The notes: generated by a model not told the origin, from the sequence alone. A DNA stretch of 64,000 nt from Oscillatoria princeps RMCB-10 (GCA_019359235.1 JAHHHT010000012.1:67648-131647); one strand, 5' to 3'. Counted from the first letter of the stretch, positions 12,548 to 47,381 are shown. Numbers and translations are program-made.

Positions 12548-12554
12548 TGACCAA

Positions 12555-21739: not shown

Positions 21740-24186
21740 ATCCTGGTTAGAGTCGATAGGGGCGTTTCCACCCCTACCTCTCCTTCAGAACCGGACGTGA
21801 AACTTTCGCTTCATCCGGCTCCTTGATACTTCCATCCTTGTTATGGACACGATTCAGGCCCGCCCCGTTTGGCATTCGAGCCATCGGATGCCGACTTTGT
21901 GTCGTGGCAATGTTTGTGTAGGAGTTGCACGTTCTCGTAGGTGTCCTTTCCACCTAACGTCCTAGGTTTGATGTGGTCAACTTCTACAATGTCTGTACTC
22001 GTAAAGTACAAGCCGCAGTGAAGGCATACACCCTTTTGTCGCTTGATTAGCGTTGCTACCCTTGTGGGAGTTTCAGGGTATTCCCCTCTTCGCTTGCTCC
22101 AGTACGCCCAGTTCCCGTCATACGGACTGGCCTCCCCTTTTACCTTGGTATGCCTTACGACTGGCGTACCGGAGTGGGCAAATAGTTCCAGTCCATCCTC
22201 GGTTCTGAAACACCAACTTTTTTCTCCTACTGGTTTCCAGTATTTCTCCTTGTTGATGCCCCCTCTCCCTCTGCGCCTCGCCCAGGCCCTCAGTTTTAGA
22301 TAAACTAGACTGTCCAGCTTACTGAAGGTTTCCTTGCTGGCAACCGTTGAGTAATAGTTTGACCACCCTCTGATAACCGGGTTCAGCTTGCTGATTAGCG
22401 CAGCCTGAGGGGCGGTCTTATGGACATCTATTACATCGGCAATCTTTTCCAGATGCTTCTGGATTTTGGCCTTTGAGGGTGTGATTAGTGTTACGAACCC
22501 CAGATTAATGCCGCTAGCATTCCACGCCGCACGGTAGCTTCCTACCTTGTACTGCCGCACGTGAAAACCCAAAAAGTCAAATCCGACGTTACCATCGACC
22601 GGCTCAAGGGTGTGAGTCAGTTTTGTTTTGCTGGGTTTCAGTTCCAATCCCATACCACCAAGCCACTTAGCGATTATCTCCTGGCATTTCTTGACTACTT
22701 CCAGATCCTCATGGATTATTACGAAGTCGTCAGCGTATCGGATTAGGCTGAGTGCGCTTCTTCTTTCCTTTTTCCCTAGCTTATAACCGCCGGGGGAATA
22801 GGCAATCAGCGTCTCAGCATACTGCTTGACTCTTTCTTCCATACCGTGTAAGGCGATGTTTGCCAGAAGAGGTGAAATTACTCCCCCTTGTGGTGTTCCT
22901 TCGTCGGTAGGGAATAGCTTACCTTGGTCACAGTACCCTGCCTTGAGCCACTGTTTTATCAGCCGTCTCATTGTGGGGTACGTGTCTATTTTGGAGAGTA
23001 GCGCCTTGTGGTCTATGCGGTCGAAACACTTAGCAATATCAGCGTCAAGCACATACTTGGCCTTTAGGCTGATGCTGGCAAAGATTGCCCCAATCGCATC
23101 GTGGCAGGAACGTCCTGGTCTGAAGCCATAACTGTTTGGCTCAAATTTTGCCTCCCATTCTGGCTAAGTGCGCTAATTTGACTAGCGCCTGAAGTGCGCG
23201 GTCGTAGATTGTGGGTATTCCTAATGGCCGCTTTTCGTCAGTTCCGGGTTTTGGAATCATTACCCGGCGGGTAGGTTTAACCTTACCCTTGAGACTCATG
23301 CGGTTTACCAGACTCACACGTTGCATCGGGGTCAGTGCCTTAACACCATCCACACCAGCCGTGTTTTTACCCTGGTTATCCTGCGTGACCCTGCGAACCG
23401 CTATGCACTTTGCCGACCAAGACCTAATCAGGGTCTTTTGAAGCCTGCGAACTGCTTTGACATCGCCACGCTCACTCGCTCGGAATATTCGCTTTTGCAG
23501 CTTGAAAGTTACCCTTTCTAGCTTGCGCCAGTTGAGGTCTTTCCATTCCACCGTCAGGTTGTCCCGCGTATTAGACATATCTACCGCTACTTGTTCAATT
23601 CCACTGGAATTACCGTGCATCTGTCAGCATATCCTTCACATTACTGAAGGCGTTCACTTTCTGATGCAATCCCCCCCCAGCCGTCATTCGCTAGCTACTT
23701 ACTGGTTCTCGACCTCACCAGAGGCGATTGGGGGTTACTTCGTTCCGATTACGCTTTGGTTGGGCCTTTAGCGTGATGCTCTCCACCGGGTTTTTTAGGC
23801 AGTGCTTGTGAGTCGGGTGTGGAACCGCTCCCGCCCTATCCTTGCCTTTTGGCTTGGTGTTGACCGATCCACATAAATGTCCCGGCCTAGCCGTTACACC
23901 ATCACTATTAACGATGGTTCAGACACATCTTTGCTTTCGCTACGCATGGGCTCTTGCTCGACAGTTACCGGATTCGGCTACCAGTAGTCTGCCTTTTGGC
24001 CCCGCTTTGACCCGTTGGATGCTACCCAATGGGCCAGGGGTCATGCTTTCACCGCTGCACCTGCGGGACAGGGCTGGACTCACGGAGTCTTCACCTGCAA
24101 ACGTAACCAGTTATCACTGGCTGTTCAAGCAGCCAGGCCAACCGTCCCTTGGGCCGTTGGCCCAATTTGGGTTGAACGAATCGCAC
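21740..24186 (-). mobile_element. Bacterial group II intron (~2.45 kb) with an RT/maturase/HNH IEP disrupted by a -1 frameshift.
   Basis: The 5' end reads GUGCGA, seen as tcgcac at 24181-24186 on the plus strand. Domain V reads GAGCCGGATGAAGCGAAAGTTTCACGTCCGGTTC on the minus strand (~21777-21810). The IEP N-terminus (23141..23620) runs RT0 through an ALQALVKLA motif. The IEP C-terminus (21841..23052, extendable to ~23140 in another frame) carries FEPNSYGFRPGRSCHDAI, YADD, maturase X, and an HNH segment CLHCG…VDHIKP…H. Confidence 0.85.
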
Positions 24187-30321: not shown

Positions 30322-30658
30322 GGAAAGGGTGTCTCCCGCCATCACTCGCCCGCCTTTATCCCGCCGACCTATTGCGCTGGCCCTTCCGGAGCGGCCAGCC
30401 TGTCTGGCAAGAAAGAGTGGCACAGATAAGACGCTCCCCAAATAAGTTTTATTACCTGTGATTTTTTAATAATTCATGGGTTTGTCTGAGCAGGCCGCTT
30501 ATTGCTTTCAGCTAAGATAGCTGTCAGTGATTTACATCACTCTTCTAGTGTGTTTAACATCATCAAGTGCCATGATAAGGATCAACTTTCAGGCGAGCAA
30601 AAAAGTTCATAGTTAGATAGCTAGGAGTTGAAAATGCTCTGGCTGTAAAGACTGTGTA

Positions 30659-33325
30659 ATGAAGAGAAGTAAGCAAATGGCTGAGAATCCAACAGAAATT
30701 CCTCTGACTGCGAGTGGGGTAATTCGCCTGAAGCCCCAGCAGTACATTCACGTTCTGGACAACAACACCGGCGTCACGAGGCTGGAGGTTGGCCCGCAAA
30801 CGATTACGCTTCGCGATCACGAGCGCCTGGTATTAAAACCCTCACCGATGATAATTGTGCCGCCCCGGCATTATTGTGCGGTTGCCAATCCGGTTCTCCG
30901 CAATGATGAGGGCACGCCAGTTGCCGATCAGCACGGCCAAATTAAACTGCGGTACGGCGATCGGGAAATTCGCTTAGCGCAAGATCCTTTTCCCCTGTAT
31001 CCGGGCGAAGCGATCGAGCAAGATGTGACGCGCTTGCACGTCGTGGAGACAAATCAAGCGCTGCGTCTGAGAGCGATTCGGGATTTTTCGGATGCAGTGA
31101 CGGTGACGGTTGAGGGAGAAATTGAGACTCAAACTATCAGCCGTACAGCCGGCGATGAGTGGCTGTTTGAAGGACCGGGAACTTATCTGCCCCGGGTGGA
31201 AGTGGAGGTACTGGAAACTGTGGCGGCTACGGTGATTAAGCCGAACCAAGCTTTGCGCTTGCAGGCGCGACAGAATTGCACGGACCGGCTGGGAAATCGC
31301 CGCCGTGCCGGTGAAGAGTGGCTGGTGAGAGAAGAGGGTGCCTATTTGCCCGGGGTTGATGAAGAAGTGATTGCCATTGTTAAGGCTTACGTTCTGACAG
31401 AGCGGAAAGCGCTGCACTTGAGGGCGAAACGCACTTTTACTGATATTTTTGGCCGGCAGCGGAAAGCTGGCGATGAGTGGTTGGTGACAATCTCGGATGC
31501 AGAGATACACATTCCGGATGTGTATGAAGAAGTGGTGGGAGAAGTTGGGATTACGACTCTGGGCGATCGGGAGTGGTGTATTGTGGTCGATCCGATTGGT
31601 GAGGATGGCAAGCCGCAATTAGGAAAGCGAGAGGTTCGCCAGGGAAGAGCGTCTTTTTTCTCGCATCCGGGAGAGTCGCTGGAAGGGGGCATTCAAAAAG
31701 TCTATGTTCTCGGCGAGCGGGAAGCGCTTTTGCTGCGAGCTAAAGAAGCTTTCAGTGAGGGGGAGGGCGAGAGTGCGGTGGAGCGCCAGCCGGGGGATTT
31801 GTGGATGATTTCCGGTCCGCGAGATTATATTCCCCGCGTGGAAGTGGAAGTGGTTGAGCGGCGCAAAGCGATTCCTCTGGATAAGAATGAAGGCATTTAT
31901 GTGCGGGATATTCAGACGGGTGAACTCAGGCTGGTGAGCGGCCCCCAGGCGTATATGCTCAGCCCGTATGAGGAACTTTGGGAGAAAGAGCTTCCGCCGG
32001 TTGTTGAGGAGTTTCTGGCGCAAAAAACCGATCCTGTTTCTGAGCGCAGCCAGAGTCACAGTACAGGGAGTTCCGAGGCAGGTCAAAAATCTGTAGCCTC
32101 GAAACCTGTCGCTAAACGGGATAAAACTAGGGCGGTTGTTTTTCACGTCCCGCAAAATGCAGCGGTGCAAATCCACGACTATAAAAACCGAAGCGCCCGC
32201 ACTGTATTTGGCCCGGATTTGGTGATGCTGGGACCTGATGAAGCATTTACGGTGCTGAGTTTGTCAGGTGGCAAGCCTAAGCGACCGAATGTGATTAAGT
32301 CGCTGGCTATATTGCTGGGCCCTGATTTTATGACGGATATCTTCATCGTGGAAACATCAGATCACGCCCGACTTCAGATGCAGCTGTCGTATAACTGGTA
32401 TTTTGATGTGGATAGAGCGGATGAGCAAGCTGCTGCAAAACTGTTTCAAGTTCCGGATTTTGTGGGGGATGCTTGCAAGGCGATTGCGTCTCGGGTGCGG
32501 GGCGCTGTGGCGGGGGTGCCATTTGACGAATTTCACCGGAATTCTGCCCGGATTATTCGGGAGGCTGTGTTTGGAACGGATGCGGAAGGTCACGTTCGCG
32601 ATGAATTCCGCTTTCGGGCGAATAATTTGGTGATTACGAACATTGACATCCAGTCTGTGGAGCCGGTGGATGAGCGGACTTTGTCCAGTCTGCAAAAGTC
32701 GGTTCAGATTGCGATTCAAATTACGACGGATGCTCAAGAAGCGGCGGCGAAGCGCGATGCGGAGCGGATTGAGCAAGAGGCTAAAGCTCGACTGGAAAGG
32801 CAGATTATTGTCGATCGGGGTGCGGCTGAGGTAGAGCGGAAAAAGCTGCTGGAATTCCAGGCTGAAAATGCGGCGATTCAGTCTACGGGGCAAGCTATTG
32901 CGGAGGCGAGGGCGAAGGCGGAAGCGGCTCGGATTCAAGGGGAATTGGCTGTGAATATGGCGCAGCAAGAAGCGGAGGCGGCTCGGATTCGGGCTGAAGC
33001 TGATTTGGCGCAGCTGAGAGCGCGTCAGGAGGCGGAGTTGGCTCACCAGCAGGCGCTGGTTAATCTGGAGATTGACAAAGCGGATCGCATGGCTGAAATT
33101 ACCAGTGCGGAATTCGCGCAGAAAGTTGCGGCAATTGGGCCGGAAACGCTGAAAGCTATGGCTCAAGCGGGACCGGAAATGCAGGCGCGGCTTCTGCAAA
33201 GTCTTGGCATTCAGAGTGTGCTGATTACTGATGGGAAAAATCCGATTAATCTGTTTGGCGCTGCTAGCGGTTTGATCGGTTCGGTGACGCCGCCGCTGAG
33301 TTCGGAGCCGCAGCGCGGGGGTTGA
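30659..33325 (+). CDS. Major vault protein (MVP) homologue, full length.
   Basis: The 888-aa product is collinear with, and highly similar to, the eukaryotic MVP consensus. The N-terminus reads …YIHVLDNNTGVTRLEVGPQT…VPPRHYCAVANPV…IRLAQDPFPLYPGE. The repeat domains read AGDEWLFEGPGTYLPRVEVEV…AGEEWLV…AGDEWLVT. The shoulder reads IPLDKNEGIYVRDIQTGE…FGPDLVMLGPDEAFTVLSLSGGKPKRP…FVGDACKAIASRVRGAVA. The cap-helix reads …EAAAKRDAERIEQEAKARLERQ…GPEMQARLLQSLGIQSVLITDG. The alternative start is the Met at 30677. Confidence 0.9.
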   Translation: MKRSKQMAENPTEIPLTASGVIRLKPQQYIHVLDNNTGVTRLEVGPQTITLRDHERLVLKPSPMIIVPPRHYCAVANPVLRNDEGTPVADQHGQIKLRYGDREIRLAQDPFPLYPGEAIEQDVTRLHVVETNQALRLRAIRDFSDAVTVTVEGEIETQTISRTAGDEWLFEGPGTYLPRVEVEVLETVAATVIKPNQALRLQARQNCTDRLGNRRRAGEEWLVREEGAYLPGVDEEVIAIVKAYVLTERKALHLRAKRTFTDIFGRQRKAGDEWLVTISDAEIHIPDVYEEVVGEVGITTLGDREWCIVVDPIGEDGKPQLGKREVRQGRASFFSHPGESLEGGIQKVYVLGEREALLLRAKEAFSEGEGESAVERQPGDLWMISGPRDYIPRVEVEVVERRKAIPLDKNEGIYVRDIQTGELRLVSGPQAYMLSPYEELWEKELPPVVEEFLAQKTDPVSERSQSHSTGSSEAGQKSVASKPVAKRDKTRAVVFHVPQNAAVQIHDYKNRSARTVFGPDLVMLGPDEAFTVLSLSGGKPKRPNVIKSLAILLGPDFMTDIFIVETSDHARLQMQLSYNWYFDVDRADEQAAAKLFQVPDFVGDACKAIASRVRGAVAGVPFDEFHRNSARIIREAVFGTDAEGHVRDEFRFRANNLVITNIDIQSVEPVDERTLSSLQKSVQIAIQITTDAQEAAAKRDAERIEQEAKARLERQIIVDRGAAEVERKKLLEFQAENAAIQSTGQAIAEARAKAEAARIQGELAVNMAQQEAEAARIRAEADLAQLRARQEAELAHQQALVNLEIDKADRMAEITSAEFAQKVAAIGPETLKAMAQAGPEMQARLLQSLGIQSVLITDGKNPINLFGAASGLIGSVTPPLSSEPQRGG

Positions 33326-33329
33326 GTTT

Positions 33330-34100
33330 TTGGGTGGGGTGCTCTGTGGCGTTCCCCACCCTACTGGGTGGGGGGGTGGGTTTCCTCGTTCCGGGGCGGG
33401 CACGGTGCCACCGGCACTACTGCCTGGGAACGAGGAAACTTGGGGGTGGGGTTTGAGCCCCCTATTAATTGGCCAACAGCATCTTTCAATCGCCGGGGAG
33501 CTGTAGGGGCGGCCCCCCGTGGCCGCCCTCCTGACACCGATGCACGGGAGCATGCGCCTTATGACATTACCATCCCGCAATTGTGCAATGCCCTTTTGCT
33601 AAGTGTTCCGGAAGGTGCGTTGCCCCAAGAGGGCAACACACCCTACTGTGCTTGGCGTCCCTTCACGGGGGCGGTTTATTATAGCAATCGACAGTCAGTT
33701 GAGGACAGGGCATCTCACTTTCTAGTAGGGACAGGGACAGGCGGGACGCCTGTCCTACGCCTTATATATGAGCGTTTCTCAGATTAGTGTGCTACGGAGA
33801 AACTCGGTAGGGGCGGTCGTGCCGCACCGCTCCTACGAAATCGGGTTTATGGGCCATAGTACATTAAACTGAGAACCGCTATATGTAGGTACGGCGTAAG
33901 CGTTGCGGCGCGTCAGCGCTACTCCCTAGCCTCATGCCCTCAAGGTAAACATGTCCGTGCCCTGGGTGGGTACTGCTATAACCCACCCTACTAGGTTGGG
34001 GAGGTGGGTTACGCTGTGGCGTTCCCCACCCCACTCTATATAGTGCGCTCCGCACGCGCACCTGTTCAGTCCAGAATCAGGCAAAAGTCCCAGCTGCAGC
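33330..34100. repeat. Repeat-rich intergenic block containing several SDR hairpins.
   Basis: The block contains ggtggggtgctctgtggcgttccccaccctac, and ggtgggttacgctgtggcgttccccacccc at ~33985-34030. The motif gggccatagtacattaaactgagaaccgctat at ~33850 also occurs at 1040-1075. Confidence 0.7.
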
Positions 34101-34578
34101 ACAGGACTCGATAAATCGCGCCGGTACAAACCAACCGCGCTAAAACGCGCACGGCTTTGACGCAATAATAAAAAGCGCGTATACATACAGCATTACGCGA
34201 TAAATCGCCTCTTTCCACGAACGAGGGGGATTTATCGCGTCTGTACAAAAGGCTCCCCCGCTGATAATGCAAAAGTGGGATGCTCCCTAATTTACCTCGC
34301 GATCAACAGAGCGCTGCCCTGAATTCGCCACAAGTATGCGGCTATCGGCCCGCTACCGACTCAATAAACAACAAAAACGACATGCGCTTATGGGAATTTG
34401 CTTTGTAATAAAAATCACTTTTTTTCTTAAGTTTTTTTTTATAGGAATTTTCCCGATCTAGGTATAATCTTGGAACTGTGAGCAAATTGACTGACTTAGC
34501 TAACGAATCCCGCATTCACAGCTAAGCCCGAACGCTCGATTTTGCCTGTACTATCGCAGCAAAACTTGCTGAATTACT

Positions 34579-36021
34579 ATGGTTACAATCGCAACAACGA
34601 ACCGGCAGCAACAAAGTATTGACATCCAAGTTGCTCGCAACCTAGCGATCACGACGAATACCGTCCCCCAAATGACGGGGATTACACCCCGGTGGCTGCT
34701 GCACTTCCTGCCGTGGGTGCAAGTGCAATCGGGAACGTACCGCGTCAACCGCACCAAAGTCGTTCTCAAACCAACTCCAAAAGTTAAGGTCAATAACAGC
34801 AACGGCTCCTCGAATGTGGCCCCTGAAGACCTGCGGACAATCCCCATCCTGTCAGACCTCGCTACTTCTGACGCTGCCGCGCTCGCCAATCGCTTTCAAA
34901 GCCAGTCTTTTGGGATGGGAGAAACTATAGTTGCGGAAGGTCAAAAAGACGACAAATTCTATATCGTCGCTCAAGGGAAATTAGAAGTGTTAATGCGGGG
35001 CGAACAAGGCTACCCCTTGCGCCTTGCCGTTCTGGGTGCGGGAGACTACTTCGGCGAAGTCGATCTCTATCAAGATCTGCCCAGCGACGCCACTGTTCGC
35101 ACACTGACTCCCTGCCGGTTGCTGACGCTTTCCAAAACCTGCTTCGACCAAGTGGCGAGTCAATCCCCACAAGTGCTGGAAAACTTGCGGCAGGCGGTTG
35201 AAAATCGCATGCGGTTAAAGACGCTCCTCAACCTGTACGGGGAAGAAAAAGTTGCGCTCGCCGCTGACTACGAAGGCGAAACTGAGTTACCCGCCTCGTT
35301 TGTGGACTACGAAAACGAACCGCAAGAGTACGAACTGAGTATCGTCCAAACTATTTTGCGCGTTCACACCCGCGTCGCCGACATTTACAACGAGCCGATC
35401 GATCAGTTGCGCGAACAGCTTCGCCTGACTGTCGAAGGCATGAAAGAGCAGCAAGAATGGGAAATTATCAACAACCCTGCCTTTGGCTTGCTGAACGCCG
35501 CCGCGCCCTCAATGCGCGTTCAGCCCCGCTACGGTGCGCCGACTCCCGACGATCTCGATGAAATGCTGGCTCGCGTGTGGAAACAACCGGCTTTCTTCCT
35601 GGCTCACCCACGGGCGATTGCAGCTTTCGGACGCGAATGCACGCGCCGGGGCGTTCCGCCGGTAACTGTGAATCTGTTCGGCTCTCCTTTCATAACCTGG
35701 CGCGGTGTGCCAATTGTGCCCTGCGACAAATTGGAAGTGCAAAATCGCACCGGCAACCCCGAAGGTCCAGGCAAAACGAATATCCTGCTCGTGCGTGCCG
35801 GTGAAAAAGAACAAGGCGTTGTCGGCTTGCATCAAATGGGCATTCCCGGCGAACAAATGCCCAGCCTGTCTGTGCGGTTCATGGGCATCAACATCCAGGC
35901 GGTGGCTTCTTATTTGATGACGCTGTACTTCTCCTGCGCTGTCTTAACCGATGACGCTCTAGCCGTGCTGGAAAACGTGGAGGTGGGATACTACCATGAC
36001 TATCAATATGCCAGCGCATAA
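34579..36021 (+). CDS. Family 2B encapsulin shell protein (HK97-fold nanocompartment) with an inserted cNMP-binding domain.
   Basis: The 480-aa product has an internal CRP-like cNMP-binding domain reading …[28 protein letters not shown]…[11 protein letters not shown]…[11 protein letters not shown]. The C-terminal HK97-like region reads [21 protein letters not shown]…NILLVRAG…[14 protein letters not shown]. The stop overlaps the next gene by 26 nt. Confidence 0.8.
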
Positions 36022-37915
36022 CGGTAAAAACGGACATGGGACGGCTCAAGACGTGCCATTACCTCCCACCGGCGACAGTGGGATGTTTGACCCGATCTCT
36101 GTAGAATCGATGGCGAATCAGTTTTATACCGCTGTGCCGAATGCTCTCAGCGTGGCAGCCCCAACCGGCACCCAGCCTGCAATTGACAATATCGGGACTG
36201 TTCCGCAGCCTGAGAGGAATAGTTCTGGCATGAGTGGGGTGGCATTAGTCGGGAACTCCGCACCGGCATCAGCCCTCAGCGAGGAAGCATTAACCGCAAT
36301 GGCTAAACAGTTGCGCTCGCAGATGGTTCCCGCTAATTTGGAAGCTAACCTGTTTCAGGCATTCGCACAGATCAAACCCGCTGCCCCCTCGCAGGAAACG
36401 GCTGCGGCGCTGCCAACAACTTCGGCTTCCAGCAATGCCTTGAATGTGGAAGCTTTGAAAGAGGCGGCACAACAGCTGTACGCCCAGATTCCTCAGATTT
36501 CCCCCAGCGGAATTCCGGGCAATTCGATTGCCACGCCTCCAAAGCCAACTTCTATTTTACCGCTCAGCGAGCCAGATTTGCAAAGGGCTTTCGCGGATGC
36601 GGGAGCGCAAGCCAGCCATTCTCCGGTTCGGGAAACACCTCAGCCGTCGTTCTATTTCCTGTCTCCCCCAGCAGTGGAAAATCTGGGGTTAGAGTCTGGG
36701 GCTGTATTTGATGTCAGCGCCATCCGCAAAGACTTTCCGATTTTGCACCAGAAAATCAACGGCAAACCGCTGATTTGGCTGGATAACGCCGCCACAACTC
36801 AAAAGCCGCAAAGCGTTATCGATGCCCTGTCGCTGTTCTACCAGCGAGACAACTCCAACATTCACCGGGGCGCTCACACTCTGGCGGCGCGGGCGACGGA
36901 TGCTTATGAGGGAGCGCGGGAAAAGGTACAGCGGTTTATCGGTGCGGGTTCGGCGTCGGAAATTATCTTCGCACGGGGAACCACAGAAGCGATTAATCTG
37001 GTGGCGCAAACCTGGGGTCGCAAGTATATCCAGCCCGGAGATGAAATTGTTCTCTCGACGCTGGAACACCACGCCAATATCGTTCCGTGGCAGATGTTGG
37101 CGCAAGAGACGGGGGCAATTTTAAAGGTTATCCCTGTTAGCGATAGCGGCGAAATTATGCTGGAGGAATACGCCGGACTTCTCGGACCGCGCACTCGCAT
37201 TGTTGGGATTACGCAGGTTTCTAACGCTCTCGGAACAATTGTTCCAGTGCGGGAAATGACGCAAATAGCCCACCGGCACGGGGCAGTCGTCCTTGTTGAC
37301 GGGGCGCAGGCTGTTTCTCACATGCCGGTTAATGTTCAAGAGATCGGTTGCGATTTTTACACCTTTTCTGGTCACAAACTCTTTGCGCCAACGGGAATTG
37401 GTGTCCTGTACGGGAAACGGCAAATCCTGGAGGATATGCCTCCTTGGCAGGGTGGCGGCAGCATGATTCGCCATGTCACGTTCGAGAGAACGATTTACAG
37501 CGATCCCCCGGCAAAATTTGAAGCGGGAACGCCTAATATTGCTGATGCGGTTGGACTGGGTGCGGCGATCGACTATATCACCCGCCTGGGGATGAGCAAT
37601 ATCGAACGGTACGAGCACAAACTCACCGAGTATGCAATAGAACGCCTCGCGCAGATTCCGGGGTTGCGTCTAATTGGTACTGCACCTCACAAAGTAAGCG
37701 TGGTGTCGTTTATTTTGGATGACATCCCTGTGGAACAAGTTGGGCAGCGCCTCGCCCGAGAAGGGATTGCGGTGCGTGCAGGTCATCACTGCGCTCAACC
37801 GACGATGCAGCGGTATAATCTGACGGGTACGGTTCGGCCTTCGCTGGCTTTTTACAACACTTGTCACGAAATCGATACGCTAGTAGAAGTCCTGCGGACA
37901 ATTCGCTTCCGCTAG
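35996..37915 (+). CDS. SufS/CsdA-type cysteine desulfurase with a ~215-aa disordered N-terminal extension (the putative encapsulin cargo-loading domain).
   Basis: Residues 1 to ~215 are low-complexity and rich in Ala, Pro, Ser and Gln. They are followed by a class V aminotransferase/SufS core reading …[11 protein letters not shown]…HRGAHTLA…[13 protein letters not shown]…[17 protein letters not shown]…RAGHHCAQP, which supplies the PLP-binding lysine and the active-site Cys loop. Confidence 0.85.
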
Positions 37916-38157
37916 CTGGAATTGTCCGCACAAGGGGACAGCATAAATGTCCCCTCACCCACCCCAACTTTCTCGACCACAAGGGGAGAGGGGGAGCTGC
38001 TGCCTCGGATCTTTTTTAGCACAAATAAAGAGAGCATCAAGAAACCTGGTTTCTAGGAATACCCATGTTAGGCTTAATTGTGCCGGACTACTGTTCGAGT
38101 CCGAGCGGATCTCTGTTTTAGGGGAGGGGCGGGTTTATTAGAACCCTTCTCTATGGT

Positions 38158-38276
38158 GAGCATCCCGATTATGTAGGGGCGAAGCATGAGGGCGAATAAT
38201 CTCTCGGTCAAAACCAGCAATTGATAATCCTCAGGCTTCGCCCTCACCAGGGTAGTTTCAAAAACGGGATGCTCCC
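38158..38276. mobile_element. MITE-like element (copy 2), bounded by GGGAGCATCCC/GGGATGCTCCC.
   Basis: It is ~95% identical to the copy at 7522-7642. Confidence 0.75.
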
Positions 38277-38607
38277 TCTCTGTACCACACATATTTCGGG
38301 GGAACCCGCCCCTACAGATATAGAAAATCGGGAACGAACGGACACGATATTGTCCCGCTTTTCCTCAAGGCAGGGCAAGCTCCAAGGGAGCATTAGTAAG
38401 CAAGGTAACTCAAGTTGCTACCTACAAGTCTAAGCATCTAGATCCCCCCAAACGGGGCGGGCAAGGTGCCACCGGCACTACAAAGGGGGGCTTTGAGAAT
38501 GTCCCCCCCCTTTTGAAGGGGGGCTAGGGGGGGATCTCCACGCTCGTACTGCTAAGTAGCAACTTGGGTTAAGATAAGTGGACTGATTTACTGGAGGTAA
38601 TCGGAAA

Positions 38608-39453
38608 GTGCTGATCGAGAACGCTCAACCCACGACTGAAGTAGCCCAAAACAGCCAGACAGCCAAGTATCCTGACGCCTCCTCACGAGGAGAGAGTTTT
38701 CGCCCAGTCAAAGCTAACCCTATCGGTGTTTTAATCGCTGATTGGCAAACGATTTATCAGCGCGATCCTGCCGCCCGCAACTGGCTGGAGGTGCTGTTGT
38801 GCTACCCTGGATTGCACGCTCTGTGGTGCCATCGCGTAGCGCACTGGCTGCACGGTTTAGGCATTCCTTTTCTGCCTCGTTTCCTGTCTTTCTTAAGTCG
38901 GTTATTCACGGGAATTGAGATTCACCCGGGTGCTAAAATTGGCAAAGGGGTGTTTATCGACCACGGGATGGGAGTGGTGATCGGCGAGACTGCAGTTGTC
39001 GGCGACTATGTGCTGATTTATCAGGGAGCGACCCTGGGGGGGACGGGAAAGGAAAAGGGCAAGCGCCATCCGACACTAGGGAATAATGTCGTTGTGGGAG
39101 CGGGGGCGAAGGTACTGGGCAATATTAAGATTAGCGATAACGTTCGCATCGGTGCGGGTTCGGTTGTGCTGCGGGATGTGCCGAGCAACAGTACGGTGGT
39201 GGGGGTTCCGGGGCGCATCACTCGTCTGAATGGGTTGAGGGCTGATGCTCTGGAGCATAACAACCTGCGGGATGTGGAAGCTGAGGTGATTCGCGCTTTA
39301 TTTGAACGGGTGAAGGAGCTTGAGAAACAGGTTGTGGAGTTGCAAGGTCAATTCAATTTGCCCCCCATGCCGGTGGATAGCGAAAAAACGGAGAGCGAAA
39401 AGTGTTATTCTAATGGGGTGATTGAAGACTTTCTCGATGGGGCTGGAATTTAA
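38608..39453 (+). CDS. cysE: Serine O-acetyltransferase.
   Basis: The product has hexapeptide left-handed beta-helix repeats reading [44 protein letters not shown]…[30 protein letters not shown]. The CysE N-terminal helical domain is present. Confidence 0.8.
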
Positions 39454-39471
39454 GAATTCCAGAGGGTTCAA

Positions 39472-39900
39472 ATGACAGAGTTTAACTGGGTTCGCGGCTT
39501 GCTGGGCGGTTTGCTCATCGGCACGAGTGCGACTGTCCTGCTGGCATTCAACGGTCGGATCGCTGGGATTAGTGGAACGCTCAACAGCGCCCTCAGTTCA
39601 GCGTCTGATGGAGTCTGGCGCTGGCTTTTTCTGGGCGGACTGCTGGCGGGGGGGGCACTCTATGAATATGTCCTCGCACCGGCACCGACACCGGCATCTG
39701 AGTTCGCTCCCTGGGCGATGCTCGCCGGCGGCTTTCTGGTGGGCTTCGGGACGCGCATGGGTAATGGCTGCACCAGCGGACATGGGGTGTGTGGGTTGGG
39801 CAGGCTTTCGCTTCGCTCGCTGGTGGCAGTTCTGACTTTTTTGGGCACTGCAATCGTCACGGTTTTCGTGACGCGCCATGTGCTTTTATGGTCTACCTGA
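39472..39900 (+). CDS. YeeE/YedE-family (Sulf_transp) membrane protein, half A.
   Basis: The product has four TM segments and the conserved motif GTRMGNGCTSGHGVCG. Confidence 0.75.
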   Translation: MTEFNWVRGLLGGLLIGTSATVLLAFNGRIAGISGTLNSALSSASDGVWRWLFLGGLLAGGALYEYVLAPAPTPASEFAPWAMLAGGFLVGFGTRMGNGCTSGHGVCGLGRLSLRSLVAVLTFLGTAIVTVFVTRHVLLWST

Positions 39901-39912
39901 GTGAGGGAAAGA

Positions 39913-40003
39913 AGCGATTTATCGCGGATATACAAGAGGGGGAGACGCGATTCATCGCGTCTCTACAAGAGGGGGTAGACGCGATTTATCGCGTCTCTAC
40001 AAG
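39913..40003. repeat. Three tandem ~30-33-bp units, each containing the palindrome GACGCGAT-TT-ATCGCGTC.
   Basis: The tandem array reads agcgatttatcgcggatatacaagaggggg, then agacgcgattcatcgcgtctctacaagaggggg, then tagacgcgatttatcgcgtctctacaag. Related copies lie at 34108-34130, 34196-34208 and 34225-34252. Confidence 0.8.
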
Positions 40004-40005
40004 AT

Positions 40006-40455
40006 TTGGATTTGGGAAAGAATATGAAACAAAATCTGGTTGCTTTGATTTCAGGTGTGCTGTTTGGTCTGGGTTTGGGTCTTTCCCAGATGATTGACCG
40101 AGAGCGGGTTATCGGTTTTTTGGATGTCACCGGCGTTTGGGACCGGACGCTGCTGTTCGTACTGGGCGGGGCTGTTGGGGTGACGGTGATTGCGTTCCGT
40201 TTTGTGTTGCGCCTCCCGCACCCATTATATGCGGAAAAGTTCTACGTTCCCACTCAGAAAAATATCGACAGAAAGCTGATATTGGGGGCGGTTATTTTCG
40301 GTGTCGGTTGGGGAATTGCTGGATACTGCCCCGGACCGGGCCTCACGGGGCTGGTGCTGGGCATCTGGAATCCCGTGTTGTTTGTAATCGCGATGATTGC
40401 CGGTTCGCTGACTTACAAATGGTTTTCGACTCGGTTTGAGGGGGAAATGGAATAA
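40006..40455 (+). CDS. YeeE/YedE-family membrane protein, half B.
   Basis: The product has four TM segments and the motif GVGWGIAGYCPGPG. Confidence 0.75.
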   Translation: MDLGKNMKQNLVALISGVLFGLGLGLSQMIDRERVIGFLDVTGVWDRTLLFVLGGAVGVTVIAFRFVLRLPHPLYAEKFYVPTQKNIDRKLILGAVIFGVGWGIAGYCPGPGLTGLVLGIWNPVLFVIAMIAGSLTYKWFSTRFEGEME

Positions 40456-40600
40456 AAGAATTAGAGTTGTGGGGTGCGTTACCGCTCGGAACGGCACCCT
40501 ACTGATTCTCGTTACCAGCCGGAGCCTGGGAACGAGGAAAGGGAGAGGAAAGAGGGAAAGGGAAAAAATCGATATGTAGCGTTTTTTAAGGAAAAGGTAT

Positions 40601-42754
40601 ATGAACGATGTCGTTCTGAACCTGACTATTTATCCCTGTGATATTGCCATAATTGGAGGCGGCTTTAGCGGCTGTCTGGTTGCAGCAAATCTTTTGCGGG
40701 ATGCAACCGTGCCGGTGGTGATTAAGTTGATTGAACGGAGTCCGGAAGTAGGCAGAGGAGTGGCTTACGGGACGCAAATATCCTGTCATTTGCTTAACGT
40801 GCCGGCGGGGAAGATGAGTGCGTTTGCGGATGAACCGGCTCACTTCCTGAACTGGTTGCAAAGGAACGGGTATGCTGACAGTACAGCATCCTCTTTCATC
40901 CCGCGTCAGGTTTATGGGGATTATGTGCGGGCACTGTTGAAGGAAGCGGAAACAAATGCTCGGGCTGGTGTGCGGTTGCAGCGGATTGTGGGGGAAGCGG
41001 TTGCGCTGGAAACGACAGCAACCGGCATCAGGGTGTACCTGAAAGACGGTGAGTGTTTGTGCGTTCAAAAGGCTGTGCTAGCGCTGGGAAATTTCCCGGC
41101 ATCTCTGCCCGAACCGCTTGCCGGTCTGGAGAACTTCGACCGCTATCTGAGAGATGGCTGGGAAGCTGATGCGGTTGCCGGTCTGAATCCAGACGATTCT
41201 ATTCTGGTGGTGGGCACCGGCTTGACGATGGTCGATGCGGTTGCTACTTTGCACCAAAAAGGATTTCAGGGGAAAATATATGCCGTCTCGCGTCACGGTT
41301 TGATGCCTGCCGGTCACAAACTAACAAGTCATTATCCAGCATTTATTGAGGCAGATACTGCACCAATAAATGCGCGAGAATTACTTCATTTAGTGCGTCT
41401 AGAAGTGCGAGCGGCGGTGGCGCAGGGGCACGACTGGCGTGCGGTAATCGACGCACTCCGCCCAGTCACGAAACAACTTTGGCAAGCACTTCCATTGCAG
41501 GAACAAAAGCGATTTTTGCGCCACGTCAAGGCTTACTGGGAAGTGTGCCGGCATCGCATTGCTGAAGAAATGGCAAATCTGCTGGATGCGACAGTGCAGT
41601 CGGGTCAACTGAAGCATTATGCCGGTCGGATTCAAAGCTGTCGGGAGTTGGAGAATCGGGTGGCTGTGACGATTCGGGAACGGGGGAAGCAAACGGAGAA
41701 AGTGTTCTTGGTCAGCCGGATTCTGAACTGCACCGGCTCAAACTGTAACTATCGCAAGTTGCAGCACCCCTTGCTCGCCAGCTTGCAAGAACAAAAGCTG
41801 ATCCGCTTCAACGAGCTGTCAATCGGAATCGACACGGCTCCAAACGGTGCTCTAATCGATGCAAACGGAAAGGTATCGGAATTGCTGTACACTTTGGGAA
41901 CACCCCGCAAGGGCAATCTTTGGGAAACTATAGCCGTTCCCGAAATTCGGGTTCAGGCTGCTTCTCTGGCGCAGGAACTGCTAAAATCCCTCAATCCCAA
42001 AGCCGATACTCCTGTTGCGGGGGATTGGTGTGCTGGAAATCTATCGCTCGCGTTACAGAAATCTACTATGCTATTGCGTCAACTGTTCGATAAAGAATCG
42101 AGTACCTACACTTATCTGATTGCCGATTTCTCTACCAAAGCAGCCATCCTAGTCGATTCTGTATTGGAACAAGTGGAACGGGATCTCCAGCTGTTGCGAG
42201 AGTTGGATCTCACCCTGCGCTATTGCCTGGAAACCCACATCCATGCCGACCACATCACCGGCACAGACAAGCTGAGGACACTTACGGGCTGTCTGGCTAT
42301 TTTGCCGGAAAATACTGAGGTGACTTGTGCGGATGGCTATATGGCGGATGGGAAGATTTTGCAACTGGGAAGCTTACAGATCCGCGCCATTGCCACCCCC
42401 GGTCATACTGACAGCCATAATGCTTATCTTATCGATGGCATTTACCTGTTAACCGGAGATGTGCTGCTGATCCGGGGTTGCGGTCGTACTGACTTTCAGA
42501 ATGGCAATGCCGGTTTGCTGTATGATGCTGTAACGCAGAAGTTATTCACGTTACCGGATGACACTTTGGTGTATCCCTGTCACGATTATAAGGGGCAAAC
42601 AGTGTCTACTATTGGGGAAGAAAAGTGCTGGAATTCCCGGTTGGCGGGGCGCAATCGCAGCCAGTTCATCGAGCTAATGAATAATCTCAATCTGCCCTAT
42701 CCCAAAAAGATGCTGGAATCTGTATCCGCCAATCAGCGCTGCGGTCAAATTTAA
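40601..42754 (+). CDS. Fusion protein with an N-terminal FAD/NAD(P)-binding (NAD_binding_9-like) domain and a C-terminal ETHE1-type persulfide dioxygenase (metallo-beta-lactamase fold).
   Basis: The N-terminus has a Rossmann GGGFSG dinucleotide motif. The C-terminus has HIHADH (HxHxDH) and TPGHTDSH metal ligands and the PDO-specific GRTDFQ motif. It is 717 aa. Confidence 0.75.
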   Translation: MNDVVLNLTIYPCDIAIIGGGFSGCLVAANLLRDATVPVVIKLIERSPEVGRGVAYGTQISCHLLNVPAGKMSAFADEPAHFLNWLQRNGYADSTASSFIPRQVYGDYVRALLKEAETNARAGVRLQRIVGEAVALETTATGIRVYLKDGECLCVQKAVLALGNFPASLPEPLAGLENFDRYLRDGWEADAVAGLNPDDSILVVGTGLTMVDAVATLHQKGFQGKIYAVSRHGLMPAGHKLTSHYPAFIEADTAPINARELLHLVRLEVRAAVAQGHDWRAVIDALRPVTKQLWQALPLQEQKRFLRHVKAYWEVCRHRIAEEMANLLDATVQSGQLKHYAGRIQSCRELENRVAVTIRERGKQTEKVFLVSRILNCTGSNCNYRKLQHPLLASLQEQKLIRFNELSIGIDTAPNGALIDANGKVSELLYTLGTPRKGNLWETIAVPEIRVQAASLAQELLKSLNPKADTPVAGDWCAGNLSLALQKSTMLLRQLFDKESSTYTYLIADFSTKAAILVDSVLEQVERDLQLLRELDLTLRYCLETHIHADHITGTDKLRTLTGCLAILPENTEVTCADGYMADGKILQLGSLQIRAIATPGHTDSHNAYLIDGIYLLTGDVLLIRGCGRTDFQNGNAGLLYDAVTQKLFTLPDDTLVYPCHDYKGQTVSTIGEEKCWNSRLAGRNRSQFIELMNNLNLPYPKKMLESVSANQRCGQI

Positions 42755-42769: not shown

Positions 42770-42855
42770 GGGGTGGGTTACGCTGTCGCCAACCCACCCT
42801 ACTTTTCTTTGGGGGGGTGGGTTACGCTGTCGCTAACCCACCCTACTTTTCTTTA
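42770..42855. repeat. Direct duplication of a ~39-bp SDR hairpin between convergent genes.
   Basis: The unit ggtgggttacgctgtcgc(c/t)aacccaccctacttttcttt occurs twice. Confidence 0.85.
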
Positions 42856-45800
42856 GACAAAATCAAGTTGAGGACGTTCAGCTCACTGGAAGTGAGGAGG
42901 TATTTGTCGGTAAAGATTTTTTCCCTCATTTCTTCTAGGCTGTAGCTCCTGAAGATAAGAAAGGGGAATTCCCCGTACTTGCGACCGATGGGCAGGGTGT
43001 TGTATGCTGGGTAAAGGGAGTGGACATACTTGGACATAAGCGTGCGAAATTCGGTGTCTTCTTCCTCTTCTGGATTGGTTTTGAAATAGTCCCGCATCGC
43101 CTCACCGGCAATAAAGGCAAACAGTGGCAAAGCATAATACTGATCGTCTCTCTGGCTGCTCTGCTCAAACCACTGAGTTCGGCTGACTTCGCCGCTGAGC
43201 AATTTCACCAGCTCCATCGCGCCACCCCTGATGGCGGTGCGCAGGTTTTCCGGGTACTCCTGGCGGTGGCTAATCGCCCGCATTTTGGCGATCAGTTCGG
43301 GGGTGGCGTGCTTTCTGATCTGCTGTTCCAGTCGAATTTGGTAAGTTTCTTCCAGGGTTTTCTCACCCACCGGCACCACCAGCAAGCTGCCACTAATGTG
43401 CCCCGCTTCTATGTTACCATAATCTAGCAATTTGTCAAGGCTTCGGCACATCTGGGAAAACTGCCGGTTGAACAGCTCCCGCAAGGAAAGATAGGAAAGC
43501 TTTTCAGAAACCCGGTTTCTTGGAGAAACCGGGTTTCTCGATGTGGCTGGATTGAGCAAGGTGAATTCGGCGCGGCTCAGAATTTCCTGCAAACTGGTAT
43601 AAACCTGCTGGAGCACCAGGTAGCTGGGACGACGGCGGTGTTCGTTCTTCAGTTCTCGGATTAGATTAGTCATCTGACCGGTAAAGGTATCACCGGCTGC
43701 TGACACAGACTTCCCGCCGATAGGAATCATCATAAACTCTTTCCTCCCCAGACGCCAAGCCCCCACAATCCGCGTCATCACGGAAACCTTGAGAATCAGC
43801 AAGATATTTAACAAACTTAAGACGCTCTCCTGGATGGAAAGCTGGCGCTCTTTGGCGTAGTCCTCAAAGGAAGTATCGCGCTCTTTGGGGTAATATAGCG
43901 CTCTATCGTACAAGTAAAAAATCAGCTCCTTGTCTTCGCCGTCGAGAGTCTTGCTTTCCCCATTTTCCCGATATTCCCCACGCGCTCTGTAGATAACCTG
44001 GATGACTTCCATCAGGTTTCTCTCCACCTGGAAGCGGGGAATTTCCGCCAGGATGCGCTTCGCCTTGGGAAAAGACAGCCCCCGACTCGCGGAAGATGTC
44101 ATAAAGACTACCTTGACATGATTCTTGTGCTGGTGTATGTTTTTCTTAGCCTCCTCGGAGAGATTGGCGTGGATTTCCAGGTAGTCCTGATTTTCCGTAA
44201 ACTCTCCCCACTGCTTCCGAAGTTTCTCAATTAGCTCCTGCAATCTCTTTTTGTCCTGGATGTACACCAGCAGCTGACTGGCGTCTGGATTTTCCAAGTA
44301 GGCGCTGATGTCCTCGGCTATCTTTGACTGTACGGCTTTCACCAAGCTGTTCCCTTTGTCTGAAACCGCCTCCTCGCTGTATTTCAAGCACTCGACAAAC
44401 ACCTTATAGGTGATTGACAAACTGCGAGCGGGATAGGAGTTGGCGTTGATGGCGATAGCACCGGCTCTCTTAAACGGAAACCGCGACACAGAAAGAGGCG
44501 CTGCGGTTTGTTTCGCCATCCGGAAATAGATTTTGTCCGGTTCCGGTGAGGCTTCCGAGAGGTGCTGGGTGATAACTTCTGGCTCAACAATAGAGGCGTC
44601 GGCGACAATGACTTTGGTGTTGAAGCCGTGCTGCGCTAGCTGAAAGCGGTGCAAAAATTGGCTGATTCCTTTCAGGAAGTTGACGCCGCTATCGTCGCCG
44701 GTGATTTCGTCTACCATGATAAAGACGTGCTTTATCCTTTGCGAGATTTTGCGCATCTCGGAGCCAATGACTTTCCCCTCGCGCTTATTGTAAGCACGTT
44801 TGAAGATTTTGTCAAGGTGATCTAGGGTGTTGGCTCCATTGGGGGTGATCCGCAAAGACTGGATGGAGACTGTGGCGACAATATTATTGTATTTCCTGCT
44901 GTCGATGAGGGCGTGGATTCCTTCGCAGATGCTAGCTAGTACGCCGGCGGTTCGCTCGCCAATATCTCGAAATGTGTCTTCGGTTTCCCTCTGGAGGCGC
45001 TTCTGGCGCGTGTTCGTAGTAGGGGCTTTAGCCCCTCCCGTAGCGTTGAGGAAGTGGACGGACTTGGCGGTAAAATCATCCTGGCGCTGATTAGAATGAT
45101 ACTCGACTGTGGGTTTTCCGCCGTTTTCTTTGATGATGCTGGCGTTGGTGTTGATGCAAAACAGCCGGCTGTCGGACAGTTTGTCGGTGTCTGGGGATTT
45201 GAATTTCTCGATGATGTCTAGGTTAACTTGTTTGCGGGGACTGACGTAGAAGAACAAAAACCCCTCGTCGATGTGAGCTTGCAGAAAGTTGGCGATGGCT
45301 GTGGTTTTGCCAATTCCGGGATTGCCGGTTAAAAATATATAGGTATCGTCCGAAACCAGCGCCTTTCTGATAAGTTCGGCGTGAGCGTCTCTCAGGTGGG
45401 ATTTGGGACTGATGTCTAGCTGCGCTGCTAACTCAGCCGGTATAATATCTATAGAGTTGAGAAAGCCATCCATCCGCTCGGTGTGAAGGACTTCTGCAAT
45501 TCCGTCCTCTCTGAGGCTGAGAGGTTTTTCTGACAGCGACTCGACGAACTTCTTCCCCTCATTAAAACTCCGAGTGGCATTTTGCTGGATAATCCCTAAA
45601 ACCTGCCGGCGAGCGGTGTTGATTTCCTGTTTATCACGTTGATTTTTGTAAATCTGCGCACAAGTTGCCAGTACGTTTAAGTTTTCCGGGCGCAGGGACA
45701 TGGCGCTGATGCCCCGGTCACTGTACCCAACTGCATTAAACACCACCGGCGCACTTTCTGTCAAGATGCCGGTTTGTCGCAGAAATCCATAGAAGCTGTG

Positions 45801-46580: not shown

Positions 46581-46668
46581 GTTTTCCTGCTTTGCGGCGT
46601 TTATTATTGTACTACAATAGGATGTCGGTGCGACCTACCGCACCGCAACTATTATTGGACAAACTTTT

Positions 46669-47184
46669 TTAGCTGACCGGGGACATTGTGGGGGCGGGAG
46701 CGCAGTATTTTGATGCCGGGATAAAGCTGCGATCGTCTTCAGTATCTACCTGAAGAGAAAACGACACACTTTCTATTTCCCAGTCTACCCAGGCTAGCGG
46801 ATTATTGTAAATACCCTCCAGTTCAAACAAGGTTACGGGTTCATCTACAGGGAAGAAATCTTCAATGACAGTTGGCGGCTGTTTTTTGGGGGGGACGTAG
46901 TTATTAGAACCTGGCGGATCTTCAACATACTCAGCGATCTGCAGCACGGATTTCTTCACGCCGGTGAAAATGCAGAGGCATTTTTGCCAGAAAATCAGCT
47001 CATCCGTTGGATTTAGAGGATGGCCAGGAAGAATTCCGATATTGCGAGTCTCGATTAAAAGCTGCCACTGGTCGAACCTAAAGCCCTCTCCCTGTTTAAA
47101 AGTTATGGTCTTTTGCAAGCTCCAGTCTTCCAAGTCACACTCTGTAAAGTGGAGGTAATCGAAATAATTACTGACAGTATTCAT
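46669..47184 (-). CDS. Hypothetical protein, the middle gene of the cassette.
   Basis: The ORF is ~171-180 aa with no recognised motif. It lies co-directionally between the two large genes with short gaps. Confidence 0.5.
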   Translation of the reverse strand: MNTVSNYFDYLHFTECDLEDWSLQKTITFKQGEGFRFDQWQLLIETRNIGILPGHPLNPTDELIFWQKCLCIFTGVKKSVLQIAEYVEDPPGSNNYVPPKKQPPTVIEDFFPVDEPVTLFELEGIYNNPLAWVDWEIESVSFSLQVDTEDDRSFIPASKYCAPAPTMSPVS

Positions 47185-47381
47185 CCTACCTTCTCCCAAA
47201 TTGTATAGCAATAGACAGCCAGTTGAGGATATTGGGTCGGAAGGAACGCCTGTCCTATGAAGGATAGGCGTAGGGCAGGCGAGACGCCTGCCCCCAAGGT
47301 CTAATGTTCTAACCTAAATGGCTGTTGCTATAGTCCTTCCCCCTTGGGGGGGGTAGGGCTAAAGCCCTACTACGAACCTTT

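Follow-up and report, generated by a model that had tools for sequence, protein, structure and literature searches.

Eukaryotic major vault protein (MVP) forms vault shells on its own in heterologous expression, with no partner needed, and the question of what vaults do has stood since 1986. A 64,000-nucleotide stretch of the Oscillatoria princeps RMCB-10 genome (JAHHHT010000012.1:67648-131647; this whole stretch is called the window below) carries at 30659-33325 a gene that a preliminary description, made from the sequence alone, took for a full-length MVP homologue next to an encapsulin operon. The locus raises the questions of whether this gene encodes a true MVP, whether its product could build a vault-like shell, and whether the neighbouring shell system is linked to it. 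We propose that the gene encodes a stand-alone, self-assembling vault shell protein, separate from the encapsulin operon, and give this explanation as a whole a probability of about 0.8. The cyanobacterial MVP family is already known (cyanobacterial MVPs have been in print since 2013; PMC3762200 and bioRxiv 10.1101/872010), so the novelty implied by the preliminary description is overstated, and the link to encapsulin, the sole new element, fails in the cross-genome comparison.

Identity and domain architecture

The gene is an uninterrupted open reading frame (ORF) of 888 codons on the plus strand, complete from an ATG start to a TGA stop, as seen in the ORF list and the translation. In all 12 of the diverse orthologous loci compared, the start codon matched the ATG at 30659 in the alignment, whereas a second in-frame ATG (M7, six codons on) was not conserved among them. 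All five Pfam MVP models matched the product far over their gathering cut-offs: Vault (four stretches, 234 bits), Vault_2 (two stretches, 123 bits), Vault_3 (119 bits), Vault_4 (60.5 bits) and MVP_shoulder (PF11978; 184.8 bits, cut-off 25, all 118 profile positions matched, residues 554-671). A phmmer search against PDB sequences aligned the protein in one stretch with human MVP (E = 0, 1024 bits, query residues 18-875 to chain residues 4-851) and likewise with rat MVP (query 17-875, chain 3-851), the human and rat chains spanning 1007-1024 bits. Identity to human MVP was 57.9% over 833 aligned positions.

These matches bear out the claim of a full-length MVP homologue in a bacterial genome. 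All six peptides quoted in support of collinearity from the repeats through the shoulder to the cap helix were found (residues 67-79, 104-117, 164-179, 553-573, 601-618 and 838-851). The preliminary description had named a purely local similarity to an unrelated band-7/SPFH protein as the outcome that would overturn it; the alignment with solved MVP runs end to end and is not a local band-7 match. The gene is almost certainly a true MVP orthologue.

Homologues of the protein are called 'colicin uptake protein' in NCBI and UniRef and 'major vault protein' by JGI, whose data already hold a 99%-identical protein under the latter name. Going by the NCBI and UniRef names, the protein could instead be a colicin uptake protein resembling TolA or a membrane scaffold of the general band-7 type, and the cap helix, rich in Ala, Glu and Gln, recalls TolA domain II (bioRxiv 10.1101/872010). 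However, no NCBIfam model matches the protein, hence the name is not model-based, and JGI gives the vault name to the same clusters. There is also no transmembrane segment anywhere in the protein (top 19-residue Kyte-Doolittle mean 1.5). Together with the five MVP-specific Pfam matches and the alignment to solved MVP, this refutes the colicin uptake or band-7 identity, which we consider extremely improbable.

The window MVP begins with an N-terminal extension (aa 1-19, 30659-30715, MKRSKQMAENPTEIPLTAS) ahead of the first human-aligned residue; the extension is hydrophilic and of similar length throughout the family consensus. The repeat-domain body, corresponding to R1-R9 (aa 20-553, 30716-32317), was matched by Pfam Vault_2, Vault, Vault_4 and Vault_3 and is collinear with human residues 6-519, the query having just two insertions over this span. 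The body includes a family-wide insertion of 11 residues at about aa 147-160 (repeat 3) and a variable linker at about aa 462-486 (before repeat 9). In the PDB alignment the repeat array is complete, human residues 4-519 being collinear and no repeat lost. The shoulder 'keyhole loop' (KPKRPNVIK, aa 539-547, 32273-32299) was mapped from the residues of the human NAD+ pocket (PMC12280208), and the SPFH-like shoulder domain itself (PF11978) occupies aa 554-671 (32318-32671). It is followed by the cap-helix coiled coil of about 155 residues (aa 672-826, 32672-33136), aligned without gaps to human residues of about 648-802, and by the cap-disk or cap-ring segment (aa 827-875, 33137-33283), aligned with human 803-851. 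The two segments together align without a gap to human 648-851. All of these features lie on the plus strand. At the level of sequence the product thus shows every feature that defines the MVP family: repeats, shoulder, cap helix, cap disk and collinearity over the full length.

Conservation of functional residues

Sites taken from the human and rabbit vault structures (PMC12280208, PMC12915596) were mapped on 121 bacterial homologues and on a family alignment of 25 members. At the waist, where the two halves of the vault meet, R23, N36, D53 and R56 (human R9, N22, D39 and R42) were invariant in the 121 bacterial sequences; human I7 was V or I, and N40 was mostly H. In the cap disk, G827, N864 and F866 (human G803, N840 and F842) were invariant in the 25 family members, N840 and F842 being the pore-constriction residues (PMC12915596). 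Human K828 corresponds to Q852 in the window MVP, and a Gln at this position is also reported for Xenopus and chicken (PMC12915596).

The pocket for NAD+/ADP-ribose comprises 13 human residues, of which 10 are identical in the window MVP (7 of them family-invariant) and one shows a conservative change. The residues invariant across the family are human R437, K506, D521, F522, W545, P565 and K573, while R507, P508 and L517 are the same in the window MVP and mostly conserved in the family. In window numbering, the residues kept are R463, K541, R542, P543, L552, D556, F557, W580, P599 and K607. R504 is K in the window and K or V in the family; H509 is N544 in the window and N or H in the family. 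As the shoulder pocket is largely retained, nucleotide binding is the likeliest candidate for a conserved biochemical activity of bacterial MVP. By contrast with these sites, the contacts for PARP4 (MINT) are unconserved: human Q164 and D214 correspond to A189 and A239 in the window MVP, and across the family Gly or Ala takes the place of the salt-bridging D214, while Q164 varies.

Proposed particle and partners

Lateral contacts between repeats and a bundle of cap helices would allow many MVP copies to self-assemble into a hollow cup, and two cups would meet at their N-terminal rims to give a soluble, cytoplasmic, vault-like cage. The barrel typical of the MVP family is a hollow 78-mer made of two 39-mer halves. 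This reading draws on the residue conservation, on the absence of a hydrophobic segment and on the purifying selection described below, together with the ability of eukaryotic MVP to self-assemble alone. The bacterial particle would probably be a 'minimal' vault built of MVP only, with the nucleotide pocket of the shoulder facing the lumen; an MVP-only make-up is suggested by the unconserved PARP4 docking site and by the lack of any TEP1, PARP4 or vault-RNA equivalent nearby. TROVE and PARP domains were absent from the larger window ORFs scanned with Pfam (those of at least 150 aa and one of 142 aa). Vault and Y RNAs gave no Rfam match in the whole 64-kb window (gathering score), around the gene (E<=1) or in six other MVP loci. 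PADLOC returned no defence-family match for MVP.

A WD40-only ORF of 554 aa lies at the window edge (62319-63983, minus strand) and gave 58 generic WD40-type Pfam matches. It passes the cut-offs of the TEP1 beta-propeller models (PF25047, PF25048) only as part of these 58 generic matches, and since it shows no NACHT, TROVE or DUF4062 part, it was rejected as a TEP1 homologue.

Several points weigh against a self-assembling vault shell. The AlphaFold2 (AF2) monomer model was built on the 25-sequence family alignment, which is too shallow (all members at least 74% identical); it reached a mean predicted local distance difference test score (pLDDT) of 43 and a predicted template modelling score (pTM) of 0.23 and gives no structural support beyond the identity to solved structures. 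DSSP assigned a single long helix at 672-826 to this model, whose confidence is low overall. The hydrophobic waist contacts are altered, as human I36 is Thr family-wide (T50) and F6 is Gly or a gap, and with these changes the association of the two halves could be weaker or different. In the pocket, the salt-bridging R511 is replaced by Ile family-wide (I546 in the window MVP), and the affinity for NAD+ may therefore differ from that of the human vault. A bacterial vault particle, its assembly or its function is unreported in the literature searched, and the search returned nothing relevant on expression or proteomic evidence for cyanobacterial MVP. Finally, only 64 kb of the genome is visible, so partners encoded elsewhere are possible.

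The altered waist also bears on whether the protein assembles as single cups or domes, possibly on the thylakoid or plasma membrane in the manner of the SPFH cages (HflK/C, flotillin, stomatin). The shoulder is an SPFH-type domain (Pfam; PMC12280208), the hydrophobic waist residues I36 and F6 are unconserved, and the 19-residue N-terminal extension sits right at the half-to-half rim, all of which would fit single domes. Nevertheless, the polar waist network (human R9, N22, D39, R42) is invariant, and rat MVP, which has Ala at position 6, forms closed vaults (PMC12280208). No transmembrane or amphipathic membrane anchor is present in the window MVP. Engineered vaults tolerate N-terminal tags, which also counts against single domes. 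We regard this arrangement as unlikely. Closed vault-like particles, the preferred reading, would form in vivo with somewhat better than even odds.

Relation to the encapsulin operon

The second shell system in the window is a sulfur-related encapsulin operon (34579-42754, plus strand) with a family 2B shell and a cysteine desulfurase. The shell gene (34579-36021) matched the SrpI-like (388.7 bits) and cNMP_binding models of Pfam and NF041163 (598 bits, cut-off 400). It is followed by the gene for the cargo cysteine desulfurase (639 aa), which has an N-terminal extension of about 240 aa and matched NF041166, the 'family 2A cargo' model, with 815.6 bits (cut-off 800). The pattern L[AS]R[LI]AN[ED]FF, a published cargo-loading motif, had no match in the cargo N-terminus. 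Further operon genes encode a hexapeptide/serine acetyltransferase (SAT)-like protein, a sulfur-transport fragment and a protein with FAD/NAD and metallo-beta-lactamase domains. The encapsulin operon that the preliminary description placed beside MVP is thus real, and of family 2B, but not 'directly' adjacent: the shell gene lies downstream of MVP across a gap of 1,253 bp.

To place this neighbourhood among others, 70 MVP loci were fetched from species-representative genomes, and 68 of them entered the flank comparisons. The encapsulin operon adjoins MVP in three of the 68, namely the window, Oscillatoria sp. Prado101 and PCC 10802 (the window with loci L001 and L002). All-against-all clustering of the flank ORFs placed no gene family beside MVP in more than 7 of the 68 loci, and the recurrent flank clusters were lineage-level synteny or abundant pentapeptide-repeat proteins. 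Two shell systems do stand side by side here, but only in a single lineage, and the significance implied for their adjacency is unsupported across the 68 loci. The adjacency lends no support to a functional link and looks like a chance outcome of local gene order.

On the downstream side of MVP, at a distance of 0.2-6.8 kb, four further loci (L008, L014, L021 and L035), in Allocoleopsis, Coleofasciculaceae or Stenomitos-type hosts, carry a gene for a class-V aminotransferase or cysteine desulfurase-like protein; in L014 the two genes are 190 bp apart. The recurrence of an aminotransferase near MVP could reflect lineage synteny or a weak recurring association.

If MVP and the encapsulin operon were one functional module under shared control, for instance through sulfur starvation or cyclic nucleotides, one could point to their adjacency on the same strand, to the arrangement being kept in two related genomes, to the cNMP-binding domain on the shell together with a CRP-like palindrome upstream of MVP (described below), and to the four aminotransferases, which are paralogues of the cargo (27-29% identity). 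However, the three loci with this arrangement all belong to one shallow lineage (synonymous divergence, dS, of about 0.2), an insertion specific to this lineage sits in the 1,253-bp gap, and the encapsulin gene is preceded by about 550 nt of conserved sequence of its own. At 397-451 aa against 639 aa, the aminotransferases lack the N-terminal stretch of about 240 aa that extends the cargo, and their four loci showed no encapsulin shell gene. A common module is very unlikely, and MVP is in all probability independent of the encapsulin operon.

Transcription, spacer and upstream region

A gap of 337 bp separates MVP from the end of the pentapeptide-repeat gene on its upstream side. We read MVP as its own transcription unit, separate from the encapsulin operon. 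The preliminary description had reached this view from a terminator-like 'SDR' cluster of repeats after the gene. The cluster is real and separate transcription stays plausible, but the cluster belongs to a variable insertion and no conserved terminator is found in it; the 1.25-kb gap and the conserved sequence of about 550 nt before the encapsulin gene make the better argument.

The lineage-specific, repeat-rich insertion after the MVP stop codon (33333-33980, plus strand, about 650 nt) contains hairpins at 33353-33372 and 33378-33441, and the fold of 33320-33475 had a minimum free energy of -84.5 kcal/mol (z = -4.6). Direct repeats are present at 33333-33383 and 33982-34035, plus an inverted repeat, I1. 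In a three-way alignment of the spacer, the insertion was lacking in both L001 and L002, and the copy number of its repeat units, GGTGGGTTACGCTGTGGCGTTCCCCACCCYACT, differs among the three related genomes. The 16-mer GTGGCGTTCCCCACCC has only two copies in the window, at 33346 and 34016. Terminator-like matches in this region were not above chance (7 against 5.0 +/- 2.4 expected). The hairpins may act as a terminator or stabiliser, though they are not conserved.

The region 34030-34578, about 550 nt long and located 5' of the encapsulin gene, is nearly invariant among the window, Prado101 and PCC 10802, despite the dS of about 0.2. It holds repeated and inverted CGATAAATCG(C) elements at 34105-34117, 34195-34209 and 34226-34241, and a T-rich tract ahead of a TATAAT-like box. 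No Rfam family matched it. The region is probably a long regulatory leader.

Upstream of MVP, a palindrome (GTGATTTACATCAC, 30527-30540, 119 nt 5' of the start) matches the operator core of the CRP/FNR family, TGTGA-N6-TCACA, and is followed by a -10-like TAACAT at 30555-30560. Of 55 loci, 5 have the exact palindrome core ahead of MVP, where the background rate predicts 0.34: the window, L001 and L004 at the equivalent position, and also L002 and L060. Three of these five exact sites come from close relatives, and the L004 MVP is 82% identical to the window MVP. With up to two mismatches to the core, the count was 13 of 55 loci against 4.2 expected. We tentatively suggest that a putative operator of the CRP/FNR type regulates MVP. 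A k-mer search for a shared upstream motif yielded just the coding N-terminus and HIP1 palindromes, and the NtcA, LexA, HLR1 and Fur patterns were not enriched upstream of MVP.

Distribution and evolution

At E<=1e-10, 2,584 proteins were retrieved by a word-indexed search. The best 120 were all 75-99% identical to the window MVP, and more than 120 clusters fall within this range; among these 120 proteins, the proteins named with an organism were nearly all from filamentous cyanobacteria. A genome scan with a few peptide patterns, whose host count is a lower bound, placed MVP in at least 70 species-level genomes. The preliminary description was right that MVP is known in cyanobacteria, but 'a few' understates its spread. 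The cyanobacterial hosts belong to Oscillatoriales, Coleofasciculales, Nostocales, Spirulina, Pseudanabaena-like forms, Prochloron and Xenococcaceae. The non-cyanobacterial hosts, as labelled, are Anaerolineales (three metagenome-assembled genomes), Thermoflexales, Thiomargarita (two) and Candidatus Parabeggiatoa. Nearly all hosts are filamentous or very large-celled. MVP identity across the cyanobacterial orders was 75-83%, and it was 68-76% for the MVPs on non-cyanobacterial contigs (L040, L041, L044, L049, L057, L066, L069 and L070).

A neighbour-joining tree built on 820 columns from 63 taxa, with 100 bootstraps and no amoebozoan sequence, recovered the high-identity bacterial clade as monophyletic (100) and, inside it, the cyanobacteria as monophyletic (97). 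Those non-cyanobacterial MVPs that entered the tree fall outside the cyanobacterial crown, a position that speaks against simple mis-binning. These findings suggest inter-phylum transfer of MVP among filamentous or giant bacteria. The preliminary description had called for such a phylogeny. The attachment of the bacterial clade among the eukaryotes was supported at 28 or less, and because of this low support we make no claim on the direction of transfer between bacteria and eukaryotes. Daly et al. (2013) grouped the cyanobacterial MVPs with Amoebozoa (PMC3762200), and published analyses disagree on the direction of this transfer.

The window MVP was 52% identical to sponge MVP, 52% to Anaeramoeba, 50% to diplonemid, 46% to ciliate, 45% to choanoflagellate and 44% to apicomplexan MVP; the corresponding values for human MVP were 51%, 48%, 48%, 45%, 46% and 45%. 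The window MVP is therefore as close to most of the compared eukaryotic MVPs as the human protein is, or closer, and these identities indicate that the bacterial MVP clade is slow-evolving and close to the ancestral sequence.

In a broader proposal, filamentous cyanobacteria and, through horizontal spread, some Anaerolineae and giant sulfur bacteria would have true vaults made of MVP only, with the shoulder pocket as their core activity. We hold this proposal tentatively and put it slightly short of even odds.

A distant MVP-like segment was also seen in metagenomic phage records of 462-735 kb (LR756501.1 and LR756503.1, 17581-18939; LR756500.1, 21441-21941), with 25-26% identity over query residues 322-732.

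Genomic setting and selection

The genes of the window are those of an ordinary cyanobacterial chromosome, including seryl- and phenylalanyl-tRNA synthetases, CobK, pentapeptide-repeat and WD40 proteins, Ser/Thr kinases and a Zn ABC transporter. The nearest genomes by MVP identity are those of Oscillatoria sp. Prado101 (96%) and Oscillatoria sp. PCC 10802 (94%). The latter is now Kamptonema formosum in the NCBI taxonomy, and the window host belongs to the Kamptonema/Oscillatoria PCC 10802 group. The ratio of nonsynonymous to synonymous substitution rates (dN/dS) of MVP was 0.108 and 0.138 against L001 and L002, compared with 0.20-0.33 in neighbouring genes, the value for CobK against L001 being disregarded as a coordinate artefact. 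MVP is under purifying selection, stronger than that on its neighbours. Its GC content is 0.544 against 0.535 in the window. MVP was not found on any PLSDB plasmid, and a scan by two peptide patterns matched no IMG/VR viral contig. The gene is chromosomal and not mobile.

At 58%, the identity to human MVP is well above what one would expect of a bacterial protein, and the GC content at third codon positions (GC3) of MVP, 0.549, is below the 0.65-0.70 of the housekeeping genes in the window; both could be signs of eukaryotic contamination, an assembly chimera or a decaying recent acquisition. These origins are refuted by several observations. The ORF is intact amid cyanobacterial genes (CobK, pentapeptide-repeat, tRNA synthetases, a group II intron), and the gene order is repeated in two independent genomes, one of them on the 6.9-Mb PCC 10802 scaffold. 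The gene is present in at least 70 genomes, all 100 bootstraps recover the bacterial clade as monophyletic, and dN/dS is 0.11-0.14. We regard such an origin as having a negligible chance.

Other features of the window were recorded. The group II intron lies at 21746-23052 (minus strand), with its domain V identified by Rfam RF00029 (63.9 bits, 21746-21823), and the ORF beside domain V has reverse transcriptase, maturase and HNH domains. Just downstream of the encapsulin operon, three large co-oriented ORFs of 1245, 180 and 1003 aa occupy 42843-50393 (minus strand). The 1245-aa ORF carries Helicase_C, AAA_22 and nSTAND3 domains, has weak PADLOC matches to Avs1b and PDC-S73, and is adjacent in PCC 10802 too; the 180-aa and 1003-aa ORFs had no family match. 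This locus may be of defence type. The gene at 3747-7463 (plus strand) codes for a protein of 1238 aa that combines a SnoaL-like domain with NHL repeats, two tandem Ser/Thr kinase genes are located at 11408-13991 (minus strand), and three FHA domains are fused to an ABC transporter at 58005-61040 (minus strand).

Significance and comparison with known systems

To what was already in print, this analysis adds a residue-level map of the human functional sites that are retained and of those that are not, the finding that MVP has no conserved neighbour, and the tentative CRP-type operator. The host range also grows well beyond 'a few bacteria', to 70 or more species-level genomes, with three lineages of filamentous or giant bacteria outside the cyanobacteria among them. 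If the proposed reading is true, a bacterial MVP apparently without the minor components would allow the intrinsic function of the shell to be studied in a simpler cell, and the culturable strains PCC 10802, PCC 7113 and PCC 6304 could serve as a prokaryotic vault system. Bacterial MVP also bears on whether vaults passed from bacteria to eukaryotes or in the reverse direction.

Compared with eukaryotic MVP (human and rat; PDB 4V60, 4HL8 and 7PKR, among others), the window MVP has the same domain order and length and 58% identity with small indels only, and keeps the polar network of the waist, the core of the shoulder pocket, the cap helix and the pore residues of the cap disk. It differs in its 19-aa N-terminal extension, in 11 additional residues within repeat 3, in a variable linker ahead of repeat 9 that is longer, and in a C-terminal tail that is short, as well as in the unconserved PARP4 contacts, the changes R511 to Ile and I36 to Thr, and the bacterial host. 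Unlike the eukaryotic vault ribonucleoprotein, it has no TEP1, PARP4 or vault RNA detected near it in the 64-kb window.

Known systems close to the window MVP include the cyanobacterial MVPs of two earlier accounts, one by Daly et al. (2013; PMC3762200) and one by Sokolskyi (2019; bioRxiv 10.1101/872010), namely those of Moorena (Lyngbya) producens (F4Y3B4), Oscillatoria acuminata (K9TKX8) and Allocoleopsis (Microcoleus) PCC 7113 (K9WB38). The window MVP belongs to the same orthologous family, with 78-80% identity to the proteins of Allocoleopsis franciscana and Moorena producens, and shares with them the 'colicin uptake' misannotation and the stand-alone chromosomal gene. The differences are limited to the host species and the flanking genes, and it is in the window lineage alone that the encapsulin operon lies downstream.

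More distant MVP-like proteins of Myxococcales, Cytophagales/Saprospira, Herpetosiphon and phages have a plan of repeats, shoulder and coiled coil (PMC3762200; bioRxiv 10.1101/2023.11.10.566534), and those of bacteria are about 16% identical to cyanobacterial MVPs (PMC3762200). The window MVP, by contrast, falls in a clade with high identity to eukaryotes, and the phage records noted above share only 25% identity with it over 46% of the query. The modelled Asgard archaeal MVP homologue has five repeats and its likeness is seen mainly via structure (Nat Microbiol 2026, PMC12962969), whereas the window MVP has all nine repeats and 58% sequence identity to human MVP. The SPFH cages (HflK/C, flotillin, stomatin) resemble it in having an SPFH-type shoulder followed by a coiled coil that closes the dome, but they are membrane-anchored single domes without the nine-repeat barrel, while the window MVP combines that barrel with the absence of any anchor.

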